The notes under the pieces: model-generated | What the model saw: only the letters and a program-made list of their open reading frames with translations | Told to the model about the DNA's origin: nothing | The model's database searches: none | Assembly (NCBI GenBank): GCA_021463465.1 | Contig: JAJTYH010000003.1 | Location: 351,942 to 415,941, forward strand | Length of the DNA stretch: 64,000 nt | Direction: 5' to 3' | From: a bacterium | Lineage (GTDB): Bacteria > Patescibacteriota > Dojkabacteria > SC72 | Program-made: the position numbers and the translations under genes | In this document: positions 13,127-55,958 of the stretch, piece after piece | Position numbering within the stretch: the first letter of the stretch is position 1 | Layout: every line of letters starts with the position of its first letter

Positions 13127-14038
13127 ATGGCCAATTTACTGCTCGCAATAGTGTTTTTGCTGGTACTTATCAAGTCGTGTGATATCCTCGTCAATCAAGC
13201 AACATCATTAGCTAAAAGATTTAAGGTAAGTAATTTTATCATTGGGTTTGTATTTGTAGCCCTGGGGACCTCCCTCCCTGAGTTAATTGCTAGTGGGCAT
13301 TCAATGTTATTTGGACATCCATCGCTTGCAATATCTAGTATCATTGGAAGTAATGTGGTGAATTTATGTCTAATTCTAGGTGCTGTAGCTTGCTATAAAG
13401 GTTTCAAACTCTCTACCATTGATGCGCACTATAATTTGCCTCTAAATTTTATTGCAACATTACTCTTTATTTTCATTGCTTTCTTGGGTAATCAAACCAT
13501 TACTTGGATATCAGGAGTGATAATGTTGACTGTATACTTTGCTTTAACCGTATTTGTTAATGACCATAATCATGTGGTGAGTCAGATTAAATATCATAAA
13601 CTTAATTGGCTAACGCTGGGGTTATCACTGGTGGTAATAGTGTTTGCAGGTAAATTTGCTGTAGAGAATCTGCTAGCTTTTGCAACGGAATTTGGCGTGG
13701 GAGAAACCGTTGTGGGCGCTATTATTGCCGCTCTGATAACCTCACTGCCAGAATTTATCACTGCAATGGTTGCTGTACGCAAAGGAAATGCCGAACTTGG
13801 GGTAGGGAGTATCATTGGGTCGAACATTTTCAACCTCTTCTTTGTCATTGCGATCTGCTCATTCATAAATCCGATTAATTTGGTCGGTTTTGGTGATGAA
13901 TTACTTTTGCTTGCAGTAGCTACACTTAGCTCAGTTATATTAGCTTTAAGTGGGAAACGATACTACTTTAGTCGTAATGAAGGTTTAGTTTTATTACTAT
14001 TTTATCTAGTTTTTCTATACCTACAGGTTCACATTTAA
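13127..14038 (+). CDS. Ca2+:cation antiporter (CaCA / YrbG family)
   Basis: Two alpha-repeat signatures, GTSLPELIAS and ITSLPEFITAM, in a 303-aa polytopic membrane protein. Confidence 0.75.
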   Translation: MANLLLAIVFLLVLIKSCDILVNQATSLAKRFKVSNFIIGFVFVALGTSLPELIASGHSMLFGHPSLAISSIIGSNVVNLCLILGAVACYKGFKLSTIDAHYNLPLNFIATLLFIFIAFLGNQTITWISGVIMLTVYFALTVFVNDHNHVVSQIKYHKLNWLTLGLSLVVIVFAGKFAVENLLAFATEFGVGETVVGAIIAALITSLPEFITAMVAVRKGNAELGVGSIIGSNIFNLFFVIAICSFINPINLVGFGDELLLLAVATLSSVILALSGKRYYFSRNEGLVLLLFYLVFLYLQVHI

Positions 14039-38434: not shown

Positions 38435-41400
38435 ATGCTAAGAAAGTTATTTAAACTCCCCAAGAGATATTTTTCTCGATTTATTTCTATTTATCTTGCA
38501 CTTTATCTTACAGTAAGTCCTGCATTAGCCTTCGCAACTACGGAAGGGCTTTTGGTGGATGAAGGCGCTCAAAGTACACCTGTAGTAGCGGAAGAAGAGA
38601 CGGTGCAGACTCCTGAGCCCACAGTCGAAGAAGAATCATCAGAAGTTACGCCTGAACCAGAAGTTGAACCTGAGGTTGTACCGGAGCCAAAGGTAGATGA
38701 ACCTGAAAATGATGAGGTTGATGTAGACGTAGTTAAGTCAGCGGATGGCGAACTTGAAGTTGGTGTGATTGAAACTACACAGTGTTTGGAAAACTCTCTC
38801 AACCCTTGTATTGGAACAGATAAGGAAGATTACGCACCGCATGAGGTAGTTACGTTGAGAGGCCATGGTTACTTACCAGAAAGTCGATACCTACTCATTA
38901 TTACTTCAGCTAATCAACCTCCTGTACGTTTTGAAGCTGAAATTATTACAAACAGCATTGGTGGTTTTAATTACAGTTATCAATTGGATGGTAGATATCG
39001 TCCTGATTACGCAGTAGAGGTTAGGAGTTTGCTCGGTGATATTATTGCAACAGATACATTTACTGATAGTCGTACTATCAATTCTGCTACAGTGAACGGC
39101 GTTGCGAGTATAACCGTCGCTCAGGGTACAACAATATTAGGTGGGGTTAACGTTTCTACAAATGGAAGTGGAAATAATGATGATTGGGCAAGTACGGGAT
39201 GGAGAATCTCTACAAGTGCTCCTGGTGGAGTTAGTTGTGATAATTTCGAGCCCGACATTACCGACGATGTAATGGGTGCTACTAAAGCCTTTAATATGAC
39301 AGCTCCTAATACACCAGGTATTTATAATGCATACTTTATTGCTTACAACAACGATAGTTGTAGCGGTGGAGCAAGTGCAGTCTACGTTCTTGAAAATGCT
39401 GTTACAGTGACAGGACCTGATCTTACAATTTCAAAAAGCAATGATGTAGGAGGTGTTGTAAATGTTGGAGGCTCATTTAACTGGATTATTACGGTTAAAA
39501 ATGAAGGGACTTCATCTGCCATCTTTAACAATGAAGATATTTTGTCGGACTCATTACCAAATGATGGGGTATCGTTTGTTGATACAAGTGATTTGGTAGT
39601 AACAACTGCGGGGGGAGTAACTGGTTCTATTGATTGCGATATTAACAGTAGTACACTTGTTTGCGACGATAACAGCGGTGGCTCTACAGTTGTAATTCCT
39701 GCTGGCGGTTCGTTTACTGTTACAGTCGAAGTGATTGCAAATGAAATTAGAACTTTATCTAACCCAAGAAAAGGTGGAAAGTGTGAAGTTGACCCAAATG
39801 AAGAAGTCGCTGAACAAAATGAGCATAATAATAAGTGTAATGACTCAGTGAAAGTTAACCCAGATACTGGAGTTACTAATCCACCGTTAGGACAATTTTG
39901 TGGCTTAGACATTGCTCTTGTTCTTGATAATTCTACAAGTATAAGCTCAGGAGAGTTGACTCAGATGAAAGCTGCAATGACTGCGTTTACATCCGCATTC
40001 AATGGTACACCTACCGAGTTTTCCGTCTCAAGATTCGCCACTACTGCATCGGTCGTTCAATCATTTACTTCCAATATAACTGCAGTTAACGCTGCAATTA
40101 ATGGAATTCCTTCAGGCGGAGGGTATACAAACTGGGAAGATGGTTTATTTAAAGGTCAAAGTACTTTGACAAATAGACCTACATACCCTGATTTGATGAT
40201 TTTTGCTTCCGATGGTAATCCAAATAGGGTTGATAACGGTACAGATGCAAGTGAGTCGCAAGCAGTAAGCGAAGCTAAAATCATTGCAAATAACATAAAA
40301 ACTGCAGGGGTGAGGATACTTGCACTTGGGATAGGTGATGAGCTGGATACACCTAATCTACAGACTATCTCTGGTAATAATGTTAATACTGGTATTAGTT
40401 CTGATGTTATAACTTCGGACTTCGCGACCCTTGCTGCCGATTTAGCTGATTACGCTATTCAACTTTGTGGAGGAACTATTAATGTAAAAAAATTGGTTGA
40501 CGGTAATCCTGCTGCTAACTGGGTATTTACTATTGATGGTGATCAGCATATTACAGGAGCTGATGGCTTTATCCCTTCAGTTGAAGTAGATAATGGTACT
40601 TACAGTGTAGTTGAGACTCCAAAGAATGGATTTACATTCCAATCTGCCGTTTGTACGATCAACAATCAGTCAGTAGGTTCACCGATTACTAATGGCGTAG
40701 GAGCAATCTCAGTAGATTCAAACGATATTGTGACCTGTACATTTAACAATATTACGAACGCATTCTGTGGCGATGGAGTTGTGAACCAGCAGTCCGAGCA
40801 GTGTGACAGTGGAGCTTCCAATGGTATTGCTTGTACTCCAACTTATGCTAACAGCTGTAATTACTGTAGTAACACCTGTCAAACCGTGAATATTCATGGG
40901 CCATACTGTGGTGATGGAATCAAGAATGGTCCTGAGCAGTGTGATGGCTCAGATGGTGTATCTGGGTCTGATTTCGCATGTACACAGAGTTGTGAGTTGG
41001 ATTTGGTTGAAAAGAAAGTAATGATCTGTCATGCGACAAGTAGTAATACTAATCCTTATGTCTCTAATGAACCTGCTAAATCAGCTGATGTAGCGGGTCA
41101 TGATGGCCATAATGGACCAGTTTGGTCTGCAGGAATTGATGGCGATTGGGGAGATATTATACCTCCGTTTAATTATGTAGGAGGTTCATATCCAGGCAAG
41201 AACTGGACAGCTGAGGGTCAAGCGATTTGGAATAATCAATGCGAAATTGAAAAGGGAACTATTGTTGTACAAAAGACCACTGTACCAGCAGGCAATCAAA
41301 CCAACTTTGATGTTTCTATAACTGGGGATGGATATATTTTTGAAAATGATAAAGGTACTGTAAGTGATTCACAGGATCACTCATTTATCGTTGAACCAGG

Positions 41401-44400
41401 AACTTATTCAGTTGAAGAGGATGCGGTTTCAGGCTGGGAAATTACGGGCAATACCTGTGATGATGTTACAGTTGCAAACGGAGAGACTAAGTATTGCCAG
41501 ATTACTAACACTAAAGTAACTGATGTGTCAATCACAAAATCGGACACACCTGATCCAGTATTAACTGGTGGTTTGTTGACTTATATTGTGACGATTGAGA
41601 ATGAAAGTGATACTAATGCAGAGAATGTTGTAGTAACCGATAACCTTCCTGCCGCATTTATGGCCATTTTCTCGGTAATACCAAGTCAGGGTTCATGTTC
41701 AGATACAACCCTTCCTTCTCCTGTGGTTTGTGAACTTGGAACTTTAGCTGCAGATGCCAGTGCCACAATTGAAATTAAAGGCTTAGCTTTTGGCATAGGA
41801 AGTATTGAGAATAATGCTTCAGTTACAACTTCGACTTACGAGATTGATTTGAAAGATAACACTACCGTTGAGGATACGACTATTGTAGATCAACCATCAG
41901 CGTGTGTTGAAGGCCAGAGATGGGCTAGTAGTGTAGTGAGTGCTTCGCAAGGTTTGCAAAAAGATGGATCGACCGTACTTTTGTCCCGCAGTGTACCTGC
42001 GAGTGCGATTGGTTTACCTGATGCTGCCACTAATCCTGATACAGGCTTTTATAGTTTAGGTAAGGGTGGTTCTATCGTGGTGGCGTTCACCTCACCAGTT
42101 GTTAACGGTGAAGGTACAGACATTTCAATTCATGAAGTGACTAATGGAAGAGAGAATTACCCTGAAGAAACCGCAAGTGTAGAGGTCAGTACGGACAATG
42201 GAGGAAGCTGGCACAATGTAGGTAGTGCATCAAGTTTGTCCACTAATGGTGTGACTTTGATTGATATAGCACCTTACACAGGTGTAACGCATGTTAGAGT
42301 GACTGATACTACTAACTTTAACCTCAATCCAAATTCGAATGCTGATGGATTTGATTTGGACGCAGTTGATGTCGACTGTAAGGCTTCTATAACCGTGATT
42401 AAAGATGTTGATATCAATGGTGATGGACAAGTTGATAAGACTAATTCTACTGATTGGGCTTGGGATATCAATGGAAGTGGTAATTATGAGACTGGAAGCA
42501 AAGTAGATGTCCAACCTGGATCATATGTGATTTCTGAAAGCCAGAAGCCTTCATACCATGTAGTTTCCTTAGTTTGTGGTCAGACTAACTACGGTGCAGT
42601 TGAGAGTCAGCAGATAAGCGTCTCGGAAGGTGAAGAACTTACTTGTACTTTTACTAACAGTGTCGATACTGGTTCTGTGAAAGTTAACAAGAGAGTTGAT
42701 CTAAATGGTGATGGAGTGTGGGGAGGTGGAAATGAGAATAGTAAGGCATATATCAGCTCCCTTGGATTTAGCTGGACTTTAGATGCAGTTGGTTCAATTA
42801 ACTTCGGCGATACCGTTACTCCTGTAATCACAGGTGCTCATCAAGTGAATGAGAATAGTCTCGAAGGCTACCACTTTGTTGCATGGTATGTAACGGGTGA
42901 AGAGGGACGTTCATGCACAAATCCTAATGGAACAACCGTACCTGTTGATATTAATGTCGTGAAGAACTCAACAGCTGAAATCACTTTGTGTAATGCAAGG
43001 GATATGGGTCAAATTACTATTGTTAAGGATTCAGTTAACAATGATGGAAAAGACTTTAACTTTTCAACTAGTACTTTGGGGTCATTTATATTAGATGATG
43101 ATGGTAATAATGGAAATCAGCACTCAAATACCAAAGTGTTCAATGTACCTTCGGGAGCATATTGGGTACGTGAGAATAGTGCCTCGGGCTGGAAACTGAC
43201 TGATTTGGTTTGTATCGGAGATGACAATTCTGTTGTTGATATCGAAAATCGAAGAGCTGATTTAGACCTAGATTTGAATGAAAATATTACCTGTACCTTT
43301 ACCAATACTAAGTTAGCAGAGATCAAGGGAACGAAGTTCAACGATCGAAACGGTGATAATCACCAAAGCTTACTCTCAGGAGAGACTTGGATGAACGGCT
43401 GGAAGATTTTTATTGATGAAAATCACAATAGCAGTTATGACACTGGAGAACTTACAGATACAACCAGTGGTTGGTTCTTTATGGATTTAGGAAAGTATGA
43501 TTTCGAGGGTTTGTTACCGGGAACTTATACGGTTTGTGAACAAATGCAAGAAGGTTGGTATGCCTCAGGTCCAGTCTGTCGTGAGATATTACTTGAGCCA
43601 GGTGATAGGAAAGAGGTGAATTTCGGTAATCACCAATCGCTAAGAATTATCGCTTCAAAGATTGTCTGTAACAGTGAAGATGACTTACCTAACTGGGGAA
43701 GTGGAGCAGGTAATATCAATTCAAATACTGCAACCAATTTCGTTGCGAATAACCCAGATTGTCAGTTAGTTTCTGACTGGCAGTTCCAGTGGGGATATGA
43801 TGGTGAAGTAGATAAGTACGGTAATGGAGACCAGTTAGGTTTGGCTCCGGAACCATGGCAGATTCTTGGATCGACGGATGCTAGTGGTGTAGCTGACATT
43901 GAGATTATGACAACTCCTGAAGGAAAAGGACTTAGTAACTTGTGGGTACGTGAGAGTTTAATGCCAGGGTATGTGGCATTCAGTTATCCACCAGCACAAC
44001 CTGAAGAAAATCCATACTCGGCTGAAATGTATTGTCACAAAGATGTCCTTTATTATGACAATTTTGATCGAATTGAAGAGGTAAAGTTTGGTGAGACCTA
44101 TTACTGTGTAGCCTTCAATGCTCTAAAGACTGGTGATATCACCGTTACTAAAGAGGTTGTAGATCCAGATGGTAATCCAGTTGAAGATACATCTACTCTC
44201 TTTACAGTGAATCTTAATGAAAGCAATCCACAACAGCTTACTGATGGTCAGTCAGTGGTTTACGGTGACTTGCCAATCGGTACATATACCGTGACTGAGG
44301 ATCCATCCGGAAACTATACTTTTGATAGTTTCGAAGGGGATGAAAATAGCGAAATAGAAGGAGCGCAGGTTACGGTTACTGAGGAAGGTAATACTAATGT

Positions 44401-48608: not shown

Positions 48609-48923
48609 TTAAAAAATGCTCCACAAAGAAACTTCAAGATCAACTCTGTTTGGGGTCTTAAATTTTATCCCTTCTTGTTTTAATTTTTCTATCTTGGTTT
48701 TAATGCCTTCGCCTGCTGAGTAACCGTGCATACTTCCATCGCTTCCTACTACTCTGTGACAGGGTATAGATGTTATGTCTGGGTTTTGAGCCATAGCACT
48801 TCCAACTGCTCTGTACGCACCAGGACTGCCTGCCAATTTAGCAAGTAATTTATATGTTATTACTTTACCTTTCGGTATGTCTTTAGCAACAGCGTAAACC
48901 TTTTGAAAAAAATAGTTTTTCAT
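48609..48923 (-). CDS. methylated-DNA--protein-cysteine methyltransferase (MGMT/Ogt C-terminal domain only)
   Basis: Active-site PCHRVV and HTH-like region in a 104-aa protein. No N-terminal domain. Confidence 0.8.
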   Translation of the reverse strand: MKNYFFQKVYAVAKDIPKGKVITYKLLAKLAGSPGAYRAVGSAMAQNPDITSIPCHRVVGSDGSMHGYSAGEGIKTKIEKLKQEGIKFKTPNRVDLEVSLWSIF

Positions 48924-49477
48924 TTCTCAAGTCCCAAAAGCTTATTTAAGAGAAGATATCGGAGCTTTTCGCCCCAACTGTAACTTACAGTATAGCTCTT
49001 GAAGTGAATCCAGTACTCTTGGCAGAACTTTCCAATCACTAAAGGTACTAATATATACATTGAGTACACGTCAATTTTGAGACTGAACTTTTCAATTGTA
49101 AAATATATTAATGCTACATACTCTCCAAAATTTGGGAAAAAGAGATATGTTTTAGTTGTACGAAGTTTCAATGAAAGAAGATACCCTATTGTTCGCCATC
49201 CAAGTAGGAGTAGGTATACCTTGAAAATAGGGGTGTGGAAAAGTATTGGTATAAGAAAGACGTATTGAAGGTAATCAAGAGGTTTATCTATTTCGTGATA
49301 CTTTTTAAGTGGTAATTTACCAAAACTTAGTATAAACCAGTCAAGAATGTCAAAAAGTATGGAAATCAGCATCCCCTCGAAAGGACGGTACAGCATGTAT
49401 ATGTATCCAGACACACGTAGGATTACTACAACAACAACATATTTATTTGTCCAAAGTTTTCTGTTAATGCTCCTCAT
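48920..49477 (-). CDS. hypothetical polytopic membrane protein
   Basis: 185 aa with about 5 hydrophobic helices. It overlaps the MGMT start (operon). Confidence 0.5.
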   Translation of the reverse strand: MRSINRKLWTNKYVVVVVILRVSGYIYMLYRPFEGMLISILFDILDWFILSFGKLPLKKYHEIDKPLDYLQYVFLIPILFHTPIFKVYLLLLGWRTIGYLLSLKLRTTKTYLFFPNFGEYVALIYFTIEKFSLKIDVYSMYILVPLVIGKFCQEYWIHFKSYTVSYSWGEKLRYLLLNKLLGLEK

Positions 49478-49517
49478 CGAACTAATTTTTCATCTATAAG
49501 AGACTGTTTACACAAGA

Positions 49518-50324
49518 TCAAATGTCTTTGCAAAGGTTTTGAATAAAGGTTTTTGAAATATGTTCCGATTTAAACAATGATTTCAAATTATTTTGCATGT
49601 TGACATCAAAGTATTGGAAAGGACATACCGCGAACTGATATTTGTCTGAAGTTTTTACAATAGGGTCATTTTTGTACTTGGGGTGAGTAACCAAATCGGT
49701 TTTTGGGGCTGTTGTGTTAATTACGCCCATGTCAAAACGCCCCCTTCCTGCTCGGTTGGTGTATCCAACCAGTTCACCTGCCTTCACACTTATTCGATCG
49801 ACTTTAATGCTCTTAGTATCATTTTGAGCCTTCGGGGGAAATGCGTTCATAATTTTATCAGGCACATTAATTATGTGATCTAACCAGTATCCAACTTCGC
49901 AACTTGCTTCAAAATGAAGAATGTATTGAACTTCTTCAACTGGATCCTCTCCCATGCGTTCTATGTAGTTCGCTCCGCTTACTAATGTAGAATCAACAGG
50001 TGCATACACTGGAGAACTTTTTTCTACCTCAATAAAAGCATGAGTTTTAATATCCTGGCCGCTCAGTATTCTAATCGGATTTTCAATGACAGTAATACTA
50101 CTGATATCAGTGGGATAGTGTGTAAATACTGGTGCTGGATTTGAAACGCATAAGGAATTAGGATTGTTTTGATTTGAAGGTGGTTGAAAGTTTGTTTCAA
50201 TGTCTTGAGATTGATTTGAAGTAATGATTACGCTATTTTTACCGTTATTTCTAAGGATTGTCGCAAAGGCTACAAAAACAATTAAAAGTAGGGCAACAAT
50301 AACAGCGGATTTAAACTTTCCCAT
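49518..50324 (-). CDS. exported hypothetical protein
   Basis: Start chosen at MGKFKSAVIVALLLIVFVAFA (signal/anchor). The track ORF begins 14 codons earlier. Confidence 0.5.
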   Translation of the reverse strand: MGKFKSAVIVALLLIVFVAFATILRNNGKNSVIITSNQSQDIETNFQPPSNQNNPNSLCVSNPAPVFTHYPTDISSITVIENPIRILSGQDIKTHAFIEVEKSSPVYAPVDSTLVSGANYIERMGEDPVEEVQYILHFEASCEVGYWLDHIINVPDKIMNAFPPKAQNDTKSIKVDRISVKAGELVGYTNRAGRGRFDMGVINTTAPKTDLVTHPKYKNDPIVKTSDKYQFAVCPFQYFDVNMQNNLKSLFKSEHISKTFIQNLCKDI

Positions 50325-50375
50325 GTTGAATAATTTACATGTAATGGGACAAGAGTTCAATGACAAAAAATGGAG

Positions 50376-50500
50376 CCATTTAGCTTCTTAGGAATGGACG
50401 GGAGAGAGGGTTACCCCAAACTCCAGTACTCGCAGAACGCATCCTATGTTAACCTGCGAGGTTGCCCGCTAACTGACTCCATTTATGATGATACTCTCCA
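50376..50500 (-). promoter_or_regulatory. candidate cis-regulatory structured RNA / attenuator in 5' leader of the exported-protein gene
   Basis: A GC-rich (about 50%) 120-nt segment in a 37% GC genome. The outer helix AAATGGAG (50376-83)/CTCCATTT (50487-94) encloses nested hairpins. On the minus strand the structure ends in a T-run (AAAAAA at 50368-50373 on plus) about 40 nt before the ATG. Confidence 0.3.
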
Positions 50501-50611
50501 TATAGGGTAATGTCAACACTTTTACAAAGAATTATTTAACAGGGTATTATCTTGCCGTGATAAGGTTTGTGATATATTTATTTACTGCAGATAAAATAAA
50601 TACACAATATT

Positions 50612-51028
50612 TTGGGAGTGGAAATAAGTAAGATAGTTGAAAGAGATATTGAATCTACTGCTAAAGTAATGGTAGAAGCTTTTAATTTTGTTAATCAGGG
50701 ATGGACTGAAGAGGACGGTTTGAAAAATATTGAGATGATCTTGAATTATGATTATTCCATTAAAGCAACTGTTGAGGGAAAGATTGTTGGTTTTCTGGCT
50801 TCATATATTAAAGATGACCACTTGTACATTGATGAGATTGCAGTTTTACCTAAACATATGGGTAAAGGTATAGGTAAAGAACTGTGGAAAAACGCATTGG
50901 AATTTGCTAGAGAAATGAAATTGGATTACGTTAAGTTGATAGCAGATCCTAAATCAGATGCTTATAAATGGTATTCACAAATAGGTTTTAAGGAAACAGG
51001 ATGGGTTGAGATGAGTTTGGAAGCCTAA
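50612..51028 (+). CDS. GNAT-family N-acetyltransferase
   Basis: 138 aa. GNAT motif A-like IDEIAVLPKHMGKGIGKELW. TTG start in the track. Confidence 0.6.
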   Translation: MGVEISKIVERDIESTAKVMVEAFNFVNQGWTEEDGLKNIEMILNYDYSIKATVEGKIVGFLASYIKDDHLYIDEIAVLPKHMGKGIGKELWKNALEFAREMKLDYVKLIADPKSDAYKWYSQIGFKETGWVEMSLEA

Positions 51029-51972
51029 TGTATGTTTCCTAGGATTTCAACTGCCAAAAATGTCAGATAGAGTAAGAGAAGTATGAAACCTTCTAATCTT
51101 GATATCGTGTTTTTTGTCCTTGCAAAATAGTAGAAAAGCAGGAGCCCAACAGTTAGAAACAGTAAACTAATGGAATAGTTATTGCTTAAAAGTATTGGTT
51201 TACCATAGTAGAAAGTTAAGGCTCCAAGCAAAAAAGTATTGAAGGCTGCTGAACCGACATAATCTCCGAAAGCAATTTGATGATTTCGCATAAATGCTGA
51301 TCTCACAACAAGCGAAAGCTCAGGTACATTAGTTCCTACGCTAATTAAGAGTAAGCTAATTAGAAATGGTGATATTTGTAAGAGATTTGAGAAGTAAAGA
51401 GTCTCTTCTACAACAAAGTGGCTCGCTGTAAATATAACGGCTATTCCAAATAGAATTTTCAAAAGTTCCTTTCCAGTTTTAATTCTATTCCTCTGTATAT
51501 TTTGAAATTTTTCAATCAAACCTTTTTTAGATTGGATGCATATTACAAGAAATCCAAAGAGAGCTAGAGAAATGAGGCTATCTTGGGCTGTAACAATCCC
51601 ATCCATGACCAGAATTACTGGTGAGGCAATAACTACAAGTGAAGCGGGTAAATTGAAACCTTGAAATTCGGGAGTTATTCGAATTGAGTTACCCACGAGT
51701 GCTAGCAAAGGAACTATTAGCATACAAAGGACAATAGATGCTCCTATAACGTTACCAACAAAAATTTCTGGATCGTTCTCTATAATAGAATTATATCCTA
51801 CTGAAAGTTCTGTGATAGAAGTAAAAAAACCCAAGACTAAAAAAGAAATGAGGAAAGAGGACACTTTGAGTGATTTAGCAATGTTTTCAACTGATTTAAC
51901 GGCAAGTCCCGATCCAATCCAAATTCCTACAAACGAAAATAGAAATATTGAGAGATGTATAATTAAGGGCAT
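51025..51972 (-). CDS. Ca2+:cation antiporter (CaCA family), second copy
   Basis: Alpha-repeats FTSITELSVG and GTNVPELSLVV. 315-aa polytopic protein. Confidence 0.7.
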   Translation of the reverse strand: MPLIIHLSIFLFSFVGIWIGSGLAVKSVENIAKSLKVSSFLISFLVLGFFTSITELSVGYNSIIENDPEIFVGNVIGASIVLCMLIVPLLALVGNSIRITPEFQGFNLPASLVVIASPVILVMDGIVTAQDSLISLALFGFLVICIQSKKGLIEKFQNIQRNRIKTGKELLKILFGIAVIFTASHFVVEETLYFSNLLQISPFLISLLLISVGTNVPELSLVVRSAFMRNHQIAFGDYVGSAAFNTFLLGALTFYYGKPILLSNNYSISLLFLTVGLLLFYYFARTKNTISRLEGFILLLLYLTFLAVEILGNIH

Positions 51973-52061
51973 TTAACTCAAAAGTGTAATTTTAAAGTAA
52001 ACAATTCATTTAAGATACCTTTTTTGAGTAGAAATAATCAAGGCAATACAGGTTCAACCCG

Positions 52062-52391
52062 TCATCGGATAACCCTCGAAAGGTAGAGAACAATAATGGT
52101 TAAGGGGAAAATTGCAAAGATAAGGATTGTGGTCACAAAAAGAGTAAGTGCTTCTTCCTTTTTTCCGTCCAAATACAGTCTTAATGGTTGAAGACAAAAT
52201 ATGTATCCCATTACAGCCGCTGAAAGCGTGAAGAGGGATAGAAATAAGATTGGCATTAATAGGGAGGTCTCCAAAATTTCAATATTTGATATCGAATGAA
52301 TCACAATAACAATGATGATAATGTAACTTAGTGCTGCCAGCGCATTGTAGAAAGGATTTTTACTCACACCTAACTTTACTTTTGGTTTCAA
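52062..52391 (-). CDS. small hypothetical membrane protein (109 aa)
   Basis: Three hydrophobic helices and nothing else. Confidence 0.4.
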   Translation of the reverse strand: MKPKVKLGVSKNPFYNALAALSYIIIIVIVIHSISNIEILETSLLMPILFLSLFTLSAAVMGYIFCLQPLRLYLDGKKEEALTLFVTTILIFAIFPLTIIVLYLSRVIR

Positions 52392-52782
52392 AGTAAGTCA
52401 AGGTAAGATTCTAATCAGACTTTGAACTACTTTTAGAATGAATTCGTCTGCTCTAGTTACAAATGAGTGGCTAAGAAAATTCAAAGAATAATTTGGCAAC
52501 TTAGTAAAAGAGATGAACTACCGGTCTTACACTAGATGAGTAAAAGTTAGACTATAACTTGATAAAGCCATTTAACATAATACTTAAATCAGAGGATAAT
52601 CATAACTTGCTCCGCAGAGGTAATTTTGCTCTAACTTGTTAAAGATATAAATGATAGCGATAGTTGATAAGCTTAGATGTATATTCAGATATTAAAATAC
52701 ATAAGTTTGTTACACGCTAAATAGTGAGTTTAATAACAGTCGAGGTACTTAGAATACAGCTCTGTATAGGATTGGGACTTAG

Positions 52783-53334
52783 TTGTATAATATAGGATAT
52801 AAAGTAAGGGCAATTACTATGATTATTATAACTAATACAAGTACAGATCAAACCGTTGTTTTGGGAAAAGATAAAACTTTGGATACCCTTTTAATTATAT
52901 CACTGTTTGATATCTCTGAAGGTATTGATATAACAAGACTAGAAGATGGAGCAATTGACGCTGATTCTCTATTAAAACTTTGTGAAGCTGGTATTGTTAA
53001 ATCTGGTAGATTAAGTAATAAAATCTATTGTGAAGAGCCAGATTCTACAAGGTATTTCATTAACCCATTGATTGCTTACTTTCTACATCAAGAATTCTCT
53101 CCAGATAAAGAGTTTATTACTCGGGAATTAAGTGTAGAAGCAACTATGCATCCTCTAACTTTTTACAATGAAAGCTATAGGCAATTCTGGGAACTTGATG
53201 ACTTGAGATTACCAGAAATCCATAGCAGTGGAGTAGAAGAGTATAATAGTGGTATTGAAGCCGTGTCAGTGCAAATTAATGAGTACCTCAGAAAAAACCA
53301 AAGATTCCACATTGAAAGTATTGAGGAATATTAA
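52783..53334 (+). CDS. hypothetical protein with possible winged-helix segment
   Basis: Sits in an AT-rich island. LLKLCEAGIVKSGRLSNKIYCEEPDS is wHTH-like. The start may be M13 (52819). Confidence 0.4.
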   Translation: MYNIGYKVRAITMIIITNTSTDQTVVLGKDKTLDTLLIISLFDISEGIDITRLEDGAIDADSLLKLCEAGIVKSGRLSNKIYCEEPDSTRYFINPLIAYFLHQEFSPDKEFITRELSVEATMHPLTFYNESYRQFWELDDLRLPEIHSSGVEEYNSGIEAVSVQINEYLRKNQRFHIESIEEY

Positions 53335-53345
53335 CGTGAATTATT

Positions 53346-53924
53346 TTAGTCGACCTCAACCGTTTGAGGTGGAAAACTCTGGAGCATAATGCTTATATTA
53401 TCCTCATATTTACAAAGATCTTTAGCAGATTTATATAAAGCTATAGCAATTAGTTTTCTAGAAATTGAACTTTCAGTTTCCAAATTTTCCCATTGATAAC
53501 CCTCTGTTCCAATCAATGCTACAGACCCAAACTTAGGTGATCCTTTACCTGTATATTTTCTTACTTTAAAGCCAGGATCGAGTTGCATAAATGTATCGCC
53601 AGATTTCGCGAAGAATACCTGGAATGTTGCTTCGTCAGTACTTACTTCACACCAAAATTCTTCAAGTTCGGGAACATCATTGTGAGATCCTGTTACAAGT
53701 TTTGTTATTTTTGTACTGTAACGTTCTAGTTCTTGATTTTTAATTGCGGGATAAGTATCTTCAATATCTTTTCTTGATTTGATAATTCTTTGCGCCCAAT
53801 TCTTTAGAGTTTGGATTGTTAAAGCAAGCTCATGATTGAGTTCGCTTGTAAATATCTTTGCGGATTCGCCAGTAATTCCTAGATCTTCAAGTTTTAAATC
53901 TGTTTTTATAGGTTTCTTGTTCAC
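53346..53924 (-). CDS. hypothetical protein
   Basis: 192 aa, convergent with the previous gene. No recognisable motif. Confidence 0.4.
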   Translation of the reverse strand: MNKKPIKTDLKLEDLGITGESAKIFTSELNHELALTIQTLKNWAQRIIKSRKDIEDTYPAIKNQELERYSTKITKLVTGSHNDVPELEEFWCEVSTDEATFQVFFAKSGDTFMQLDPGFKVRKYTGKGSPKFGSVALIGTEGYQWENLETESSISRKLIAIALYKSAKDLCKYEDNISIMLQSFPPQTVEVD

Positions 53925-54252
53925 TTAAGTTTTACTAAAGTAATATCGACATTATAGCGGAGTACTACGGGATAGCAAGGTTTGAGATATACGTAAGTAG
54001 TTAGATTGTGGAAGAATCTCCTTACTTACAGAACTATACTCTTAGGTATTCAATTTACTTGATTAGTTAATGATAGTTTTATACATACGAGCATAAAGCC
54101 ACGAGTGTAAGGTTATGGAAGTTTTCATTACTAATTGAATCTCTAGAAAAGAAGATATCAGATAACCTCCCCGTATATGACATATTCCTGAACCTGAAGT
54201 TTAACTTCAACTTGGATATGTTCAAAATCAATAATCTGCTGAAACTAGAAAT

Positions 54253-54675
54253 TTAGACCTTAATTATTCGGTCTTCCGATGGAATTAACCCCTCAAGATA
54301 CTCCTTTACCTTTGGGAATAAGGTTGGCATATAGGTCGGCAATTCTTTAATGTCAACCCAAACTAGAGTATCAATGTCATTATTTTCACTTGATGCCGTT
54401 GTTTCTACCCCTGAAATCCTTTTGCAATGGAAGTATTCTATTTCTTTTAGTGTTTTAGGATGAACTCTCTCTCCAATCTTCTCAACAATAACAGTGTCTA
54501 GTCCAGATTCTTCTTTAATTTCTCTAATAACTGCATTTGTGCTTGTTTCTCCATCTTCTATTTTGCCACCAGGAAAAACATACTCAATTCCCCCAAATGC
54601 CTCCAACTGCTCCTTTTTCAGTTTACCAATTAGTATCTTATTGTTATCAGTTATTATTCCTAAAACGGTTTTCAT
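54253..54675 (-). CDS. NUDIX hydrolase
   Basis: Nudix box GGKIEDGETSTNAVIREIKEESGL (GX5EX7REUXEEXGU). Confidence 0.82.
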   Translation of the reverse strand: MKTVLGIITDNNKILIGKLKKEQLEAFGGIEYVFPGGKIEDGETSTNAVIREIKEESGLDTVIVEKIGERVHPKTLKEIEYFHCKRISGVETTASSENNDIDTLVWVDIKELPTYMPTLFPKVKEYLEGLIPSEDRIIKV

Positions 54676-54731
54676 TTTTTTATTTGGTTATGTATTGGAA
54701 TTATTGTATCTCAATAAGAGGAAATTGACTC

Positions 54732-54803
54732 CTCCGCGACCAGGATTCGAACCTGGAACCAACCGGTTAACAGCCGGTCGCTCTACCGTTGAGCTATCGC
54801 GGA
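54732..54803 (-). tRNA. tRNA-Asn (anticodon GUU)
   Basis: The reverse complement folds by hand. Acceptor TCCGCGA/TCGCGGA. D arm GCTC-AACGGTA-GAGC. Anticodon arm ACCGG-CTGTTAA-CCGGT, giving GTT. T arm CCAGG-TTCGAAT-CCTGG. Discriminator G. Confidence 0.88.
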
Positions 54804-54898
54804 ATATCAGCAATCATTATACTTATCGCCTCCCATTTACGCAATATTTACATATCTGGTAATATATATGTAGATTCTAATTTCAAATCAATATTCAA

Positions 54899-55359
54899 TT
54901 GAAAAAACTACTTTTAGCCTTGCTTATGTCCCTTCTTTTCCCTATGTTTGTGAATGCCCAAGAAGTTGGTGATAAACCAATACTTTTTGTCCGTAAAGGT
55001 TGTCCGCATTGTGCAAAAGTGGAAGCTTTTTTGGATAAATATAACTTGAGGGAAACTGTTGAATTTAAAGAAACATTTAATAACGAAGCCAATACAAAAG
55101 AGATGGGTGATTGGTTTACTAAATTAAATGTGACCGATCCTAATCAGCGCGGAGTTCCTTTTTGGTAGTTGATGACAAGACTTATTATGTTGGAGATATC
55201 CCTATTATCGAGTATTTGGCAGAAAAAAATAATATTGAAGTTGACGTTTCTGAATACCAATCTTCAATGGCAGATACTATCTTCCTTGTTGTAGGAGGTT
55301 TAGTACTTTTTGGAGTTGTTGGTTATGGATTATATTCCTCGTTCGCAAAGAAAAAATAA
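54899..55359 (+). pseudogene. thioredoxin/glutaredoxin-fold membrane-anchored protein split by a +1/-1 frameshift in a T5 homopolymer (or assembly error)
   Basis: ORF A (54899-55168) has a signal peptide, CPHC and ...NQRGVPFW*. ORF B (55162-55359) reads (L)VVDDKTYYVGDIPIIEYL plus a C-terminal TM. One extra T in TTTTT (55159-55163) would give the contiguous thioredoxin-fold reading ...GVPFLVVDDKTYYVGD... Confidence 0.55.
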
Positions 55360-55376
55360 ATTTATTCTTTACTACG

Positions 55377-55958
55377 ATGAAGGTACAAACCTCCTTTAAC
55401 GGCATGGCTGTTTCAGAAGCCTTGCGTAATTATCTCGAAGAGAAACTTAATAGGCATGAGAGTATCTTAAATCATGCAACATCTATCTCTGGAGAATTTA
55501 ATGACCATGTTGCTTCCAGAGGCGTTAAAGCAGATTTCCGTTTGGATTTGAATGTTGTATTACCTAAGGCGGTTGTTAGGGTAGAGGAAGAGGGAGAGGA
55601 TATGTACAGTGTTGTTGATAAGGCGGTAGATACACTTATCAGAAGGGTAAAAAGATATAACGACAAGAAAGTTAATTGGGATGGAGTGACTCCTTGGAAA
55701 GACATCGAAGCAATGTCCGAGACGGAAGAAGTAGCTGAAGAAGCCATTGATAATTACATCAATTATGTTCCCAAGATTAAGCACAGAATCAAACTTGAGA
55801 ACATAGCACCAATGGGTGAAGCTGAAGCAATTGAGAGAATGGAGCTACAAGGTCAGGATCAAATCTTGTTTAAAAATGTTCAAACCGGTGAATTCTCAAT
55901 GATATACCGAAATGGCAGAGGTGAATACTGCCTTGTCATACCTAAAAATTCCGTTTAG
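55377..55958 (+). CDS. hpf: ribosome hibernation promoting factor, long form
   Basis: S30AE/RaiA N-domain with EDMYSVVDKAVDTLIRRVKRYNDKK. The C-terminal dimerisation domain ILFKNVQTGEFSMIYRNGRGEYCLVIP is typical of long HPF. Confidence 0.8.
   Translation: MKVQTSFNGMAVSEALRNYLEEKLNRHESILNHATSISGEFNDHVASRGVKADFRLDLNVVLPKAVVRVEEEGEDMYSVVDKAVDTLIRRVKRYNDKKVNWDGVTPWKDIEAMSETEEVAEEAIDNYINYVPKIKHRIKLENIAPMGEAEAIERMELQGQDQILFKNVQTGEFSMIYRNGRGEYCLVIPKNSV

Follow-up and report, generated by a model that had tools for sequence, protein, structure and literature searches.

The 64,000-nt stretch analysed here (positions 351,942 to 415,941 of contig JAJTYH010000003.1; hereafter the window, whose own numbering is used throughout) contains a tRNA-Asn (GTT) gene on the minus strand, and the DNA on the 3' side of this gene carries a 565-bp cassette (54167-54731, minus strand) with a single NUDIX hydrolase gene. 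We found that the cassette is present in some strains of the species and precisely missing from others, and that it ends in a 26-nt attachment (att)-like site which also closes small gene units downstream of tRNA-Asn in distant relatives. The comparisons show that units are gained or lost precisely within GGAG(G), that they can be stacked in tandem, that one of them has passed horizontally between divergent genomes and that the site is strongly conserved. We read the system as a site-specific exchange of cassettes at tRNA-Asn, similar to that of integrons or of cis-mobilizable elements (CIMEs). The locus as a whole is probably the tRNA-proximal end of an accessory zone, in which cassettes are exchanged through the 26-nt site and in which two orphan genes farther from the tRNA, here called open reading frame (ORF) A and ORF B, represent earlier acquisitions of the same hotspot.

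Exact-protein look-ups gave approximately 20 conspecific contigs from at least 14 samples, including a conspecific metagenome-assembled genome (MAG; GCA_020853275.1). From three of these contigs, each from a different sample (L007, L009 and L011), the 565-nt unit is missing precisely, with position 54170 joined to 54731; another contig, L010, stops at 54170. The empty-site strains retain a single CCTCC (GGAGG on the minus strand) where the window has two, a distal copy at 54166-54170 and a proximal copy at 54731-54735, and this is seen as a 5-nt overlap of the BLAST segments. Elsewhere, these three contigs are 99.8-99.95% identical to the window, and L011 has only 5 differences in 10 kb. One breakpoint of the cassette is the last base of tRNA-Asn, the exact boundary being ambiguous within the 5-nt repeat, and in the NUDIX-less strains the sequence 53925-54166 follows directly after the tRNA. 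The gain or loss of the NUDIX gene is a conservative exchange in the common GGAG(G), and among close relatives a precise presence or absence was found for this unit and not for ORF A and ORF B. The NUDIX cassette is the sole unit moving today at this locus.

The cassette consists of a 55-nt promoter-bearing leader, which separates the NUDIX gene from tRNA-Asn, the NUDIX gene itself (54253-54675, minus strand, 140 aa) and an 86-nt tail ending in the 26-nt site. The NUDIX gene is its only cargo, and no integration or transfer genes are included. The protein matches PF00293 over residues 3-115 (E 3.5e-13) as well as MutT-like families of NCBIfam, and the Nudix box in its translation, GKIEDGETSTNAVIREIKEESG, fits the pattern GX5EX7REUXEEXGU (regex), as in members of the NUDIX superfamily. 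It also matches a PHROG of MutT/NUDIX proteins (E 6e-16) and PDC-S07 of PADLOC, a candidate single-gene defence family (E 7e-17). The latter match may reflect generic NUDIX similarity, yet it fits the defence-flavoured cargo of the sister cassettes described below.

A comparison with a more divergent strain lineage (L002 and L021-L024) shows unequal divergence along the locus. Relative to the window, neighbouring housekeeping-type genes differ by 1.6-2%, ORF A and ORF B by approximately 4%, the sequence 53925-54166 by 2.6% (in L002), and the spacer in front of ORF A, the fastest-diverging segment of the locus, by 7.3%. Whereas two strain lineages differ by 1.6-7% on either side of 54077-55547, their divergence within this segment is only 0.27%; it is a recent import by homologous recombination over the NUDIX cassette, tRNA-Asn and the adjacent glutaredoxin-like gene. 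The ends of this tract do not match the ends of the cassette.

The att-like site, TTCAGGAATATGTCATATACGGGGAG, is located at 54167-54192 on the minus strand. It is unique in the window, and 0 matches are expected by chance. It ends in GGAG, contains merely a 13-nt AT palindrome, and in a gapless alignment is identical at 14 of 26 positions to the T-arm and acceptor 3' strand of tRNA-Asn. The tRNA itself ends in ...CGCGGAG, with the CCA not encoded as judged from the sequence. In a fuzzy search allowing up to 7 mismatches in the window and all 148 loci, we found seven distinct copies of the site with 0-3 mismatches in six lineages from at least five independent projects, and none with 4-7 mismatches. 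The carriers are the NUDIX-positive contigs of the species and L107 (two copies), L134, L095, L057 and L085. All copies are downstream of tRNA-Asn and oriented as the tRNA is, their 3' ends lying 565-1484 nt past the tRNA end, and the site is identical at 26 of 26 positions across genomes whose core DNA is 66% identical. The junctions throughout follow the pattern tRNA...CGCGGAG/unit...CGGGGAG/next (slashes mark the boundaries). The NUDIX gene and the gene of L095 are co-directional with the tRNA, and the GNAT, nucleotidyltransferase (NTase), ImmA+XRE and L085 genes are opposite to it. Because the motif is independent of the orientation of the cargo gene, it is likely to be a site acting at the DNA level rather than a terminator. 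It coincides with an indel boundary in two independent comparisons, namely the presence or absence of NUDIX between strains and that of the GNAT unit between L107 and L134.

The units ending in this site differ in cargo and size. In addition to the NUDIX unit of 565 nt, there are a GNAT unit of 697 nt in L107, an NTase unit of 742 nt in L107 and 743 nt in L134, a unit of 827 nt with a gene for a 230-aa membrane protein in L095, a unit of 1444 nt with two ORFs in L085 and an ImmA+XRE unit of 1484 nt in L057. The pair L107 and L134 is most informative. Their core DNA is 66-68% identical and their tRNA-Asn genes are 88.7% identical, whereas the 750-nt NTase segment after tRNA-Asn is 97.5% identical. 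In L107, the extra GNAT unit is located between the tRNA and the NTase segment, its junctions are again ...GGAG/, and both units of this tandem terminate in TTCAGGAATATGTCATATACGGGGAG. Judged from these identities, the NTase cassette has moved horizontally as a unit bounded by the motif. In another pair, L029 and L057, identity is 99.6% as far as the final base of tRNA-Asn; a replacement of 61 nt in L029 versus 2007 nt in L057 comes next, and beyond it the identity is 89-93%. The tRNA is followed by CCA in L057 and by TTTT in L029. The insert of L057 comprises the ImmA+XRE cassette and a HAD-like gene, and the latter is the direct neighbour of the tRNA in L075 and L106.

The genomic setting of the tRNA is conserved far more widely than the DNA on its 3' side. 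An exact-pattern scan for the 3' half of tRNA-Asn yielded at least 120 metagenome loci. Relatives retain the block FtsE-FtsX-M23-SurA-HPF-tRNA-Asn with unrelated genes downstream, and among the matches listed, 12 loci keep SurA-HPF-tRNA-Asn and are all different downstream of the tRNA, with cargo such as ImmA (M78)+XRE, GNAT, NTase and DUF4238. Thus, the 3' flank of tRNA-Asn is a hotspot of accessory genes in this clade. No close relatives by HPF were found in GTDB representative genomes or JGI metagenomes. Since the nearest HPF proteins are just 44-56% identical to that of the window, the organism belongs to an isolated lineage. A relative with a 760-kb contig is consistent with a small genome like those of the candidate phyla radiation (CPR).

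Two of the relatives, L016 and L017, show the extent of the variable zone. They keep BacA-iPGM-RF1-FtsE-FtsX-M23-LTD-SurA-HPF-Grx and tRNA-Asn, and at the far end they keep an MGMT-like gene (65% identical to that at 48609-48923), with wholly different gene content between the two, so that 48924-54252 of the window is replaced. After the tRNA, the order in these loci is NUDIX, PF06983, a hydrolase, DUF5680, a second NUDIX, DinB, Zip and others. The first NUDIX gene (2329-2862 of L016, found also in L017 and L018; HPF 53% identical) lies 58 nt downstream of tRNA-Asn and its product is 31% identical to the NUDIX protein of the window. The second NUDIX of L016 is 2 kb beyond the first, and the spacers between tRNA and NUDIX in the window and L016 share the 10-mer ATACAATAAT. 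The idea that a NUDIX gene follows tRNA-Asn as a general rule was rejected, as a Nudix-box regex found none in the 102 loci that extend 500 nt or more past the tRNA, and tblastn found none in any of the 120 listed. In L039, a homologue of the small membrane-protein ORF next to ORF A (48-49% identity over approximately 100 aa, E 2e-22) is found 329 nt downstream of tRNA-Asn on the same strand. Because of this homologue, the membrane ORF is regarded as a real gene that is older than ORF A and ORF B. ORF A, ORF B and the NUDIX gene therefore sit between two features, each of which is adjacent to the tRNA in some relative. Neither of the two spacers flanking ORF A and ORF B showed homology above shuffled controls to the L039 spacer between tRNA and membrane ORF.

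The likely mechanism is that a circular cassette with one copy of the site recombines with the 3' end of tRNA-Asn, the last bases of which (...CGCGGAG) would serve as the primary recombination site. As the circle would recombine at the tRNA 3' end, each new cassette would be placed next to the tRNA, in the manner of integron arrays or of CIMEs in a string. A site-specific recombinase would act in trans, its gene being located at another place in the genome or on a visiting element. For the excised NUDIX circle, the predicted junction is ...ATACGGGGAG/GAGTCAATTTCC (...CGGGGAG/GAGTCAA...). A more tentative proposal, which we hold to be possible and less than probable, is that this clade has a system dedicated to the capture of cassettes, in effect an integron anchored at a tRNA gene, in which the site recombines with the 3' end of tRNA-Asn, and that neither is part of a decayed integrase-bearing island. 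Such a system would shuttle recombinase-less cassettes of 0.6-1.5 kb between distant genomes, probably of the CPR/Patescibacteria type, by means of a recombinase whose gene is not close to the site.

ORF A and ORF B were the subject of the first-pass annotation of this DNA, which described them as an AT-rich island with the signature of an integrated accessory element. The two ORFs are convergent, as it stated: ORF A (171 aa, plus strand) extends from an ATG at 52819, or a TTG at 52783, to 53334, and ORF B (192 aa, minus strand; 53346-53924) lies 11 nt beyond it. ORF A is acidic (pI 4.5), and a TATAAT hexamer is seen at 52786-52791 upstream of its ATG; a promoter scan found TTGCTA-16-TATAAT at 53951-53978 upstream of ORF B (10/12 matches). 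A search of 5.8 billion protein clusters with both proteins returned solely near-identical copies from the same species, and searches of Pfam (also at E up to 10), PHROGs, PADLOC, NCBIfam and PDB with sequences and profiles gave nothing usable; the best PADLOC match of ORF B was the weak NsnC (E 0.012, 13 bits), and ORF A had none. The winged-helix-like segment suggested earlier for ORF A has no Pfam counterpart even at E up to 10. No relatives of either protein were found in IMG/VR, and a phage origin is unsupported.

For ORF A, no homologue was found beyond the species. For ORF B, an exhaustive HMMER search found one true relative, P0003 (35% identity, E 2e-19; BLASTP 8e-31), which shares conserved motifs along 140 residues; these correspond to the C-terminal part of approximately 140 aa, and the N-terminal third is predicted to be helical. 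The other two HMMER matches are repeat proteins. An FN3-like fold for the C-terminus, suggested by one repeat protein (P0004, BLASTP E 4e-6), was dismissed at an hhalign probability of just 14%, and u193 of L016, considered as another homologue of ORF B, proved to be alpha/beta-hydrolase-like instead. P0003 is encoded on a 2-kb contig on which the next gene is a co-directional PF06983 gene, with no convergent ORF A, and the upstream side is cut by the contig end. This contig is identical in two assemblies (L003 = L015; CAZRXP010000030.1 and DASZSY010000014.1) and has 33% GC. One of these assemblies is binned as a Candidatus Nanoarchaeia MAG; because the neighbouring genes (PF06983 and, by eye, a YggT-like membrane protein) look bacterial, this binning may be wrong.

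Every conspecific contig that spans the region carries ORF A and ORF B in an unchanged context, and their frames are intact in all of these (eight further samples) except L002. They are base-for-base the same as in the window in L007, L009 and L011, and single-nucleotide polymorphisms (SNPs) occur just in L001, L012 and the divergent L002 lineage. Compared with L002, ORF A has 10 nonsynonymous and 9 synonymous changes over 408 and 105 sites, respectively, and ORF B has 11 and 7 over 455 and 121 sites. Approximately 79% of the sites are nonsynonymous, and of the 37 pooled substitutions 16 are synonymous against approximately 7.7 expected under neutrality (estimated p ~0.002), giving a nonsynonymous/synonymous ratio of roughly 0.3-0.4. 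The codon log-odds per codon are 0.20 for ORF A and 0.21 for ORF B, typical of the genes of this genome. Because of the synonymous excess, the native-like codon scores and the 35%-identical homologue of ORF B, both are in all likelihood genuine protein-coding genes. L002 has a 1-bp frameshift indel in each; that in ORF B deletes the conserved C-terminal 46 residues, and ORF A keeps 159 of its 171 residues. The genes thus seem to be weakly constrained and dispensable in at least one strain lineage. On this evidence, ORF A and ORF B are probably two separately transcribed, convergent, species-restricted genes evolving fast under weak purifying selection, which were most likely acquired earlier via the same tRNA-Asn hotspot.

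The spacers on either side of the pair, at 52392-52818 (spacer 1, a divergent intergenic region of 427 nt between the membrane ORF and the ATG of ORF A) and at 53925-54252 (spacer 2, 328 nt between ORF B and NUDIX), had no Rfam match at either gathering or E-value thresholds, and their fold z-scores were +0.18 and -0.48, respectively. We explain spacer 1 as a divergent promoter region that is not under constraint, and spacer 2 as a native part, the upstream region of ORF B (53925-54166, minus strand), followed by the tail of the cassette with the att-like site.

Several observations weigh against an exchange of cassettes as we propose it. The survey is small, with seven site copies in six lineages for at least 120 tRNA-Asn loci. 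The exact repeat between the tRNA end and the site is just 4-5 nt, and the single NUDIX event on its own could be a microhomology deletion. The tRNA-adjacent NUDIX gene of L016 has no 26-nt site. Searches of IMG/VR, GenBank phages and PLSDB plasmids returned no free attP-like copy; two IMG/VR matches to the core of the site were set aside as they are without the flanking half and look like chance. No recombinase was detected with Pfam or precomputed Pfam annotations among the window genes or in any cassette-bearing contig, and matching the window and 13 loci against the tyrosine-recombinase signature (regex) found nothing; several ORFs of the window and the cassette contigs are without any Pfam match, and RecA, RecX and RecJ are present. 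As for ORF A and ORF B, the region 48-54.1 kb contains no copy of the site with up to 7 mismatches and no tRNA fragment, no cassette boundary was found, and their AlphaFold2 single-sequence models are unusable, with a predicted local distance difference test score of 35-36. If the NUDIX polymorphism were a slippage deletion between chance GGAGG pentamers of an ancestral tRNA-linked NUDIX gene, with the 26-nt motif being a regulatory element or terminator, then the merely 5 nt common to the junction would be expected, the arrangement of the outgroup L016 (also tRNA-Asn and then NUDIX, with the shared spacer 10-mer) would be explained, and the SNP at 52179 shared by the NUDIX-less strains would be consistent with a single event. 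However, a slippage deletion does not account for a motif that lies at the exact indel boundary in two independent comparisons, that is conserved at 26 of 26 positions across 66%-identical genomes on either side of genes whatever their orientation, and that bounds a horizontally moved NTase cassette. Furthermore, the window NUDIX is no nearer to the first NUDIX of L016 (31%) than the latter is to its own paralogue (30%). We consider such a deletion improbable, and prefer site-specific exchange at tRNA-Asn.

A broader alternative, to which we give some weight while judging it rather unlikely, is that the whole of 52392-54731, including ORF A, ORF B and NUDIX, is a remnant of one or more elements that integrated at tRNA-Asn and then lost the integrase, with decay of the end site. 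ORF A and ORF B would in that case be cargo or older cassettes. Foreign genes clearly gather at the hotspot, no other part of the window has GC and third-position GC (GC3) as low as this segment, ORF A and ORF B are orphans, and with the membrane-ORF homologue of L039 only 329 nt from tRNA-Asn, all the DNA that separates these two features in the window has the look of an insertion. However, L039 is very distant (HPF approximately 47-49% identical) and its spacers are unalignable, and therefore a deletion there is equally possible; moreover, ORF A and ORF B occur in all strains with native-like codon usage, and 48-54.1 kb has neither a site copy nor a tRNA fragment. The integrated element inferred in the first-pass annotation thus holds in that the 3' flank of tRNA-Asn is a hotspot, and fails in that ORF A and ORF B are in all strains and no integrase is recognisable in 64 kb. 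Similarly, the att repeat it expected near 52000-52400 exists as a diverged att-like site at 54167-54192, bounding NUDIX alone; the 19-mer of the tRNA end that it proposed has no second copy in the window (up to 3 mismatches; blastn-short with the whole tRNA; 11-mer repeats), and a repeat finder over 46-58 kb returned only chance-level pairs. The gene content differs in distant relatives, and ORF A and ORF B are retained in every conspecific contig spanning the region. The first-pass annotation also suggested that ORF A and ORF B might form a two-gene toxin-antitoxin (TA) or anti-phage defence cassette. They are small adjacent orphans in a hotspot with defence- or TA-flavoured cargo elsewhere (ImmA+XRE, NTase, DUF4238), and ORF B has the weak NsnC match, but they are convergent with separate promoters and no operon, unlike a type II TA pair, they have no significant match in PADLOC, PHROGs, Pfam, NCBIfam or PDB, and the homologue of ORF B is followed by PF06983 and not by a convergent ORF A. 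The frameshifts of L002, with ORF B truncated and ORF A nearly complete, could be tolerated by a TA pair in one direction alone. A function of this kind is very unlikely. That one or both are chance or decaying reading frames in AT-rich junk DNA is hardly credible: the frameshifts of L002, the ratio of 0.3-0.4 based on few substitutions, the lack of known domains and the low-confidence models could be so interpreted, but not the synonymous excess, the typical codon log-odds, the motifs conserved along 140 residues of the ORF B homologue and the frames intact in all spanning conspecific contigs other than L002. The island as first described is ordinary: orphan genes in a tRNA-flank hotspot.

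The cassettes described here resemble known systems in part, and no description of this site or system was found in the literature searched. Like integron cassettes, they are small, mostly single-gene, recombinase-less units with one conserved site at the distal end, which are serially inserted at a fixed primary site with the newest nearest to it and exchanged between unrelated genomes; L107 has a tandem array of two units, and all seven site copies are co-oriented. However, in integrons attC recombines with attI by IntI, whereas here the primary site is a tRNA 3' end and no attI lies beside an intI. The 26-nt site has neither the GTTRRRY core nor the long imperfect palindrome of attC, the tRNA has no integrase gene beside it (on its upstream side are the glutaredoxin-like gene and HPF), and the cargo is in both orientations, seemingly with its own promoters.

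Xer-dependent dif/pdif modules are small recombinase-less gene modules with sites of approximately 28 nt, moved in trans by the host recombinase. Compared by eye with dif consensus sequences, the 26-nt site shows no similarity and no XerC-spacer-XerD (11-6-11) arrangement, and the units here are at a tRNA end, not on plasmids or at the chromosome dimer-resolution site. The ssrA-targeted islands of Dehalococcoides are reportedly many kb long and encode their own site-specific recombinase, unlike the units here. These tandem islands arise by repeated integration at the 3' end of one small-RNA gene and have direct repeats (PMC3146451). In the streamlined genomes of Prochlorococcus, flexible genes gather at tRNA genes by repeated site-specific integration of tycheposons (bioRxiv 10.1101/2020.12.28.424599). 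There, too, newer arrivals push older genes outward from the tRNA, but tycheposons have their own tyrosine recombinase and partial-tRNA repeats of approximately 40 nt, whereas no recombinase was seen here and the exact repeat is 4-5 nt.

CIMEs are bounded by attL and attR at a tRNA 3' end, are without integration and transfer genes and can be stacked in tandem (PMC5704250). The NUDIX unit, bounded by the tRNA end and the 26-nt site and devoid of such genes, has the same organization. However, CIMEs are decayed integrative and conjugative elements (ICEs) or integrative and mobilizable elements (IMEs), usually of several kb, with att repeats that copy the tRNA end (PMC5704250), and are moved by the integrase of a related element, whereas the units here measure 0.57-1.5 kb and their cargo is intact. 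The end site of these units is conserved from host to host but differs from the tRNA at 12 of 26 positions, which suggests that it is a maintained rather than a decayed site. No parent ICE or IME and no integrase for the NUDIX unit was found in the window or the cassette contigs. Compared with a typical tRNA island, an adjacent integrase is missing, as no scanned window gene has a recombinase domain; at the far end, where an att repeat would be expected, the NUDIX unit has a 5-nt exact repeat with a 26-nt look-alike of the tRNA end (14/26), and ORF A and ORF B have neither.

The remaining features of the locus are as follows. tRNA-Asn was placed at 54732-54803 by Rfam (73 bits) and at 54731-54804 by ARAGORN, with the discriminator at 54732, and these programs and Pfam bear out the earlier placement of the island and the NUDIX gene on its 3' side. 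The variable low-GC accessory zone spans 48924-54731, from the MGMT-like gene to tRNA-Asn. Between its far end and ORF A are a Na/Ca-exchanger gene (51025-51972, minus strand) and the gene for the 109-aa membrane protein with three transmembrane segments (52062-52391, minus strand), which therefore lies to the left of spacer 1 and not between the two spacers as previously supposed. A second Na/Ca-exchanger gene (PF01699) exists at 13127-14038, at a distance of 38 kb, so that the copy near ORF A and ORF B, in the variable zone, is a paralogue and may be accessory. The spacers were correctly noted to be unusually long: no ORF-free gap of the window exceeds these two, 52392-52782 (measured to the TTG start) or 52392-52818 (measured to the ATG) and 53925-54252, the larger apparent gaps of a crude gene map all containing ORFs on inspection. 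The intergenic gaps have a median of 37 nt, but there are several others of 240-294 nt, and the statement that all other gaps are of tens of nt was overstated. The AT-richness is real: with a GC content of 0.327 (mean 0.380, sd 0.021), 52392-54252 ranks among the lowest 0.2% of segments of its size, although it is part of a wider low-GC zone of approximately 47-55.4 kb; 48924-54731 (0.343) is likewise in the lowest 0.2%, and the window overall has approximately 38% GC. ORF A and ORF B have the lowest GC3 (0.23) among the 28 genes checked.

On the upstream side of tRNA-Asn are the glutaredoxin-like gene and HPF/RaiA (Pfam). At 55154-55159, the window has 5 T where every other conspecific contig covering the position has 6 T; the glutaredoxin-like gene, intact elsewhere (144 aa), is thereby broken into 54899-55168 and 55162-55359. 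The source assembly is likely to have either a homopolymer error or a frameshift of its own at this position. Among near-identical strains, clusters of SNPs were seen at 41381-41473 (12-13 SNPs in 93 nt) and at 42469-42634 (4-9 SNPs in 166 nt, depending on the strain). Both fall within the gene for a 2644-aa surface protein of the VWA/SpaA type and look like recombination or gene-conversion tracts.

For annotation, these results suggest that a long spacer may harbour a functional DNA site, and that ORF A and ORF B are probably genuine, albeit orphan, genes. How genes are exchanged among ultra-small uncultured bacteria with few recognisable mobile elements is largely unknown. At one tRNA gene of these organisms, single accessory genes (NUDIX, GNAT, NTase and ImmA+XRE) move as minimal units, both between strains and between genomes with only approximately two-thirds of the core DNA sequence in common. 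This points to an exchange of single genes that is integrase-less and has not been described before. The 26-nt signature, in the search form TTCAKRRATATGTCATATAYRGGRAG, offers a way to locate flexible genes in metagenomic data. Should a dedicated recombinase prove to be involved, the cassettes would constitute a new and compact system, which might also serve to insert DNA site-specifically at tRNA ends.

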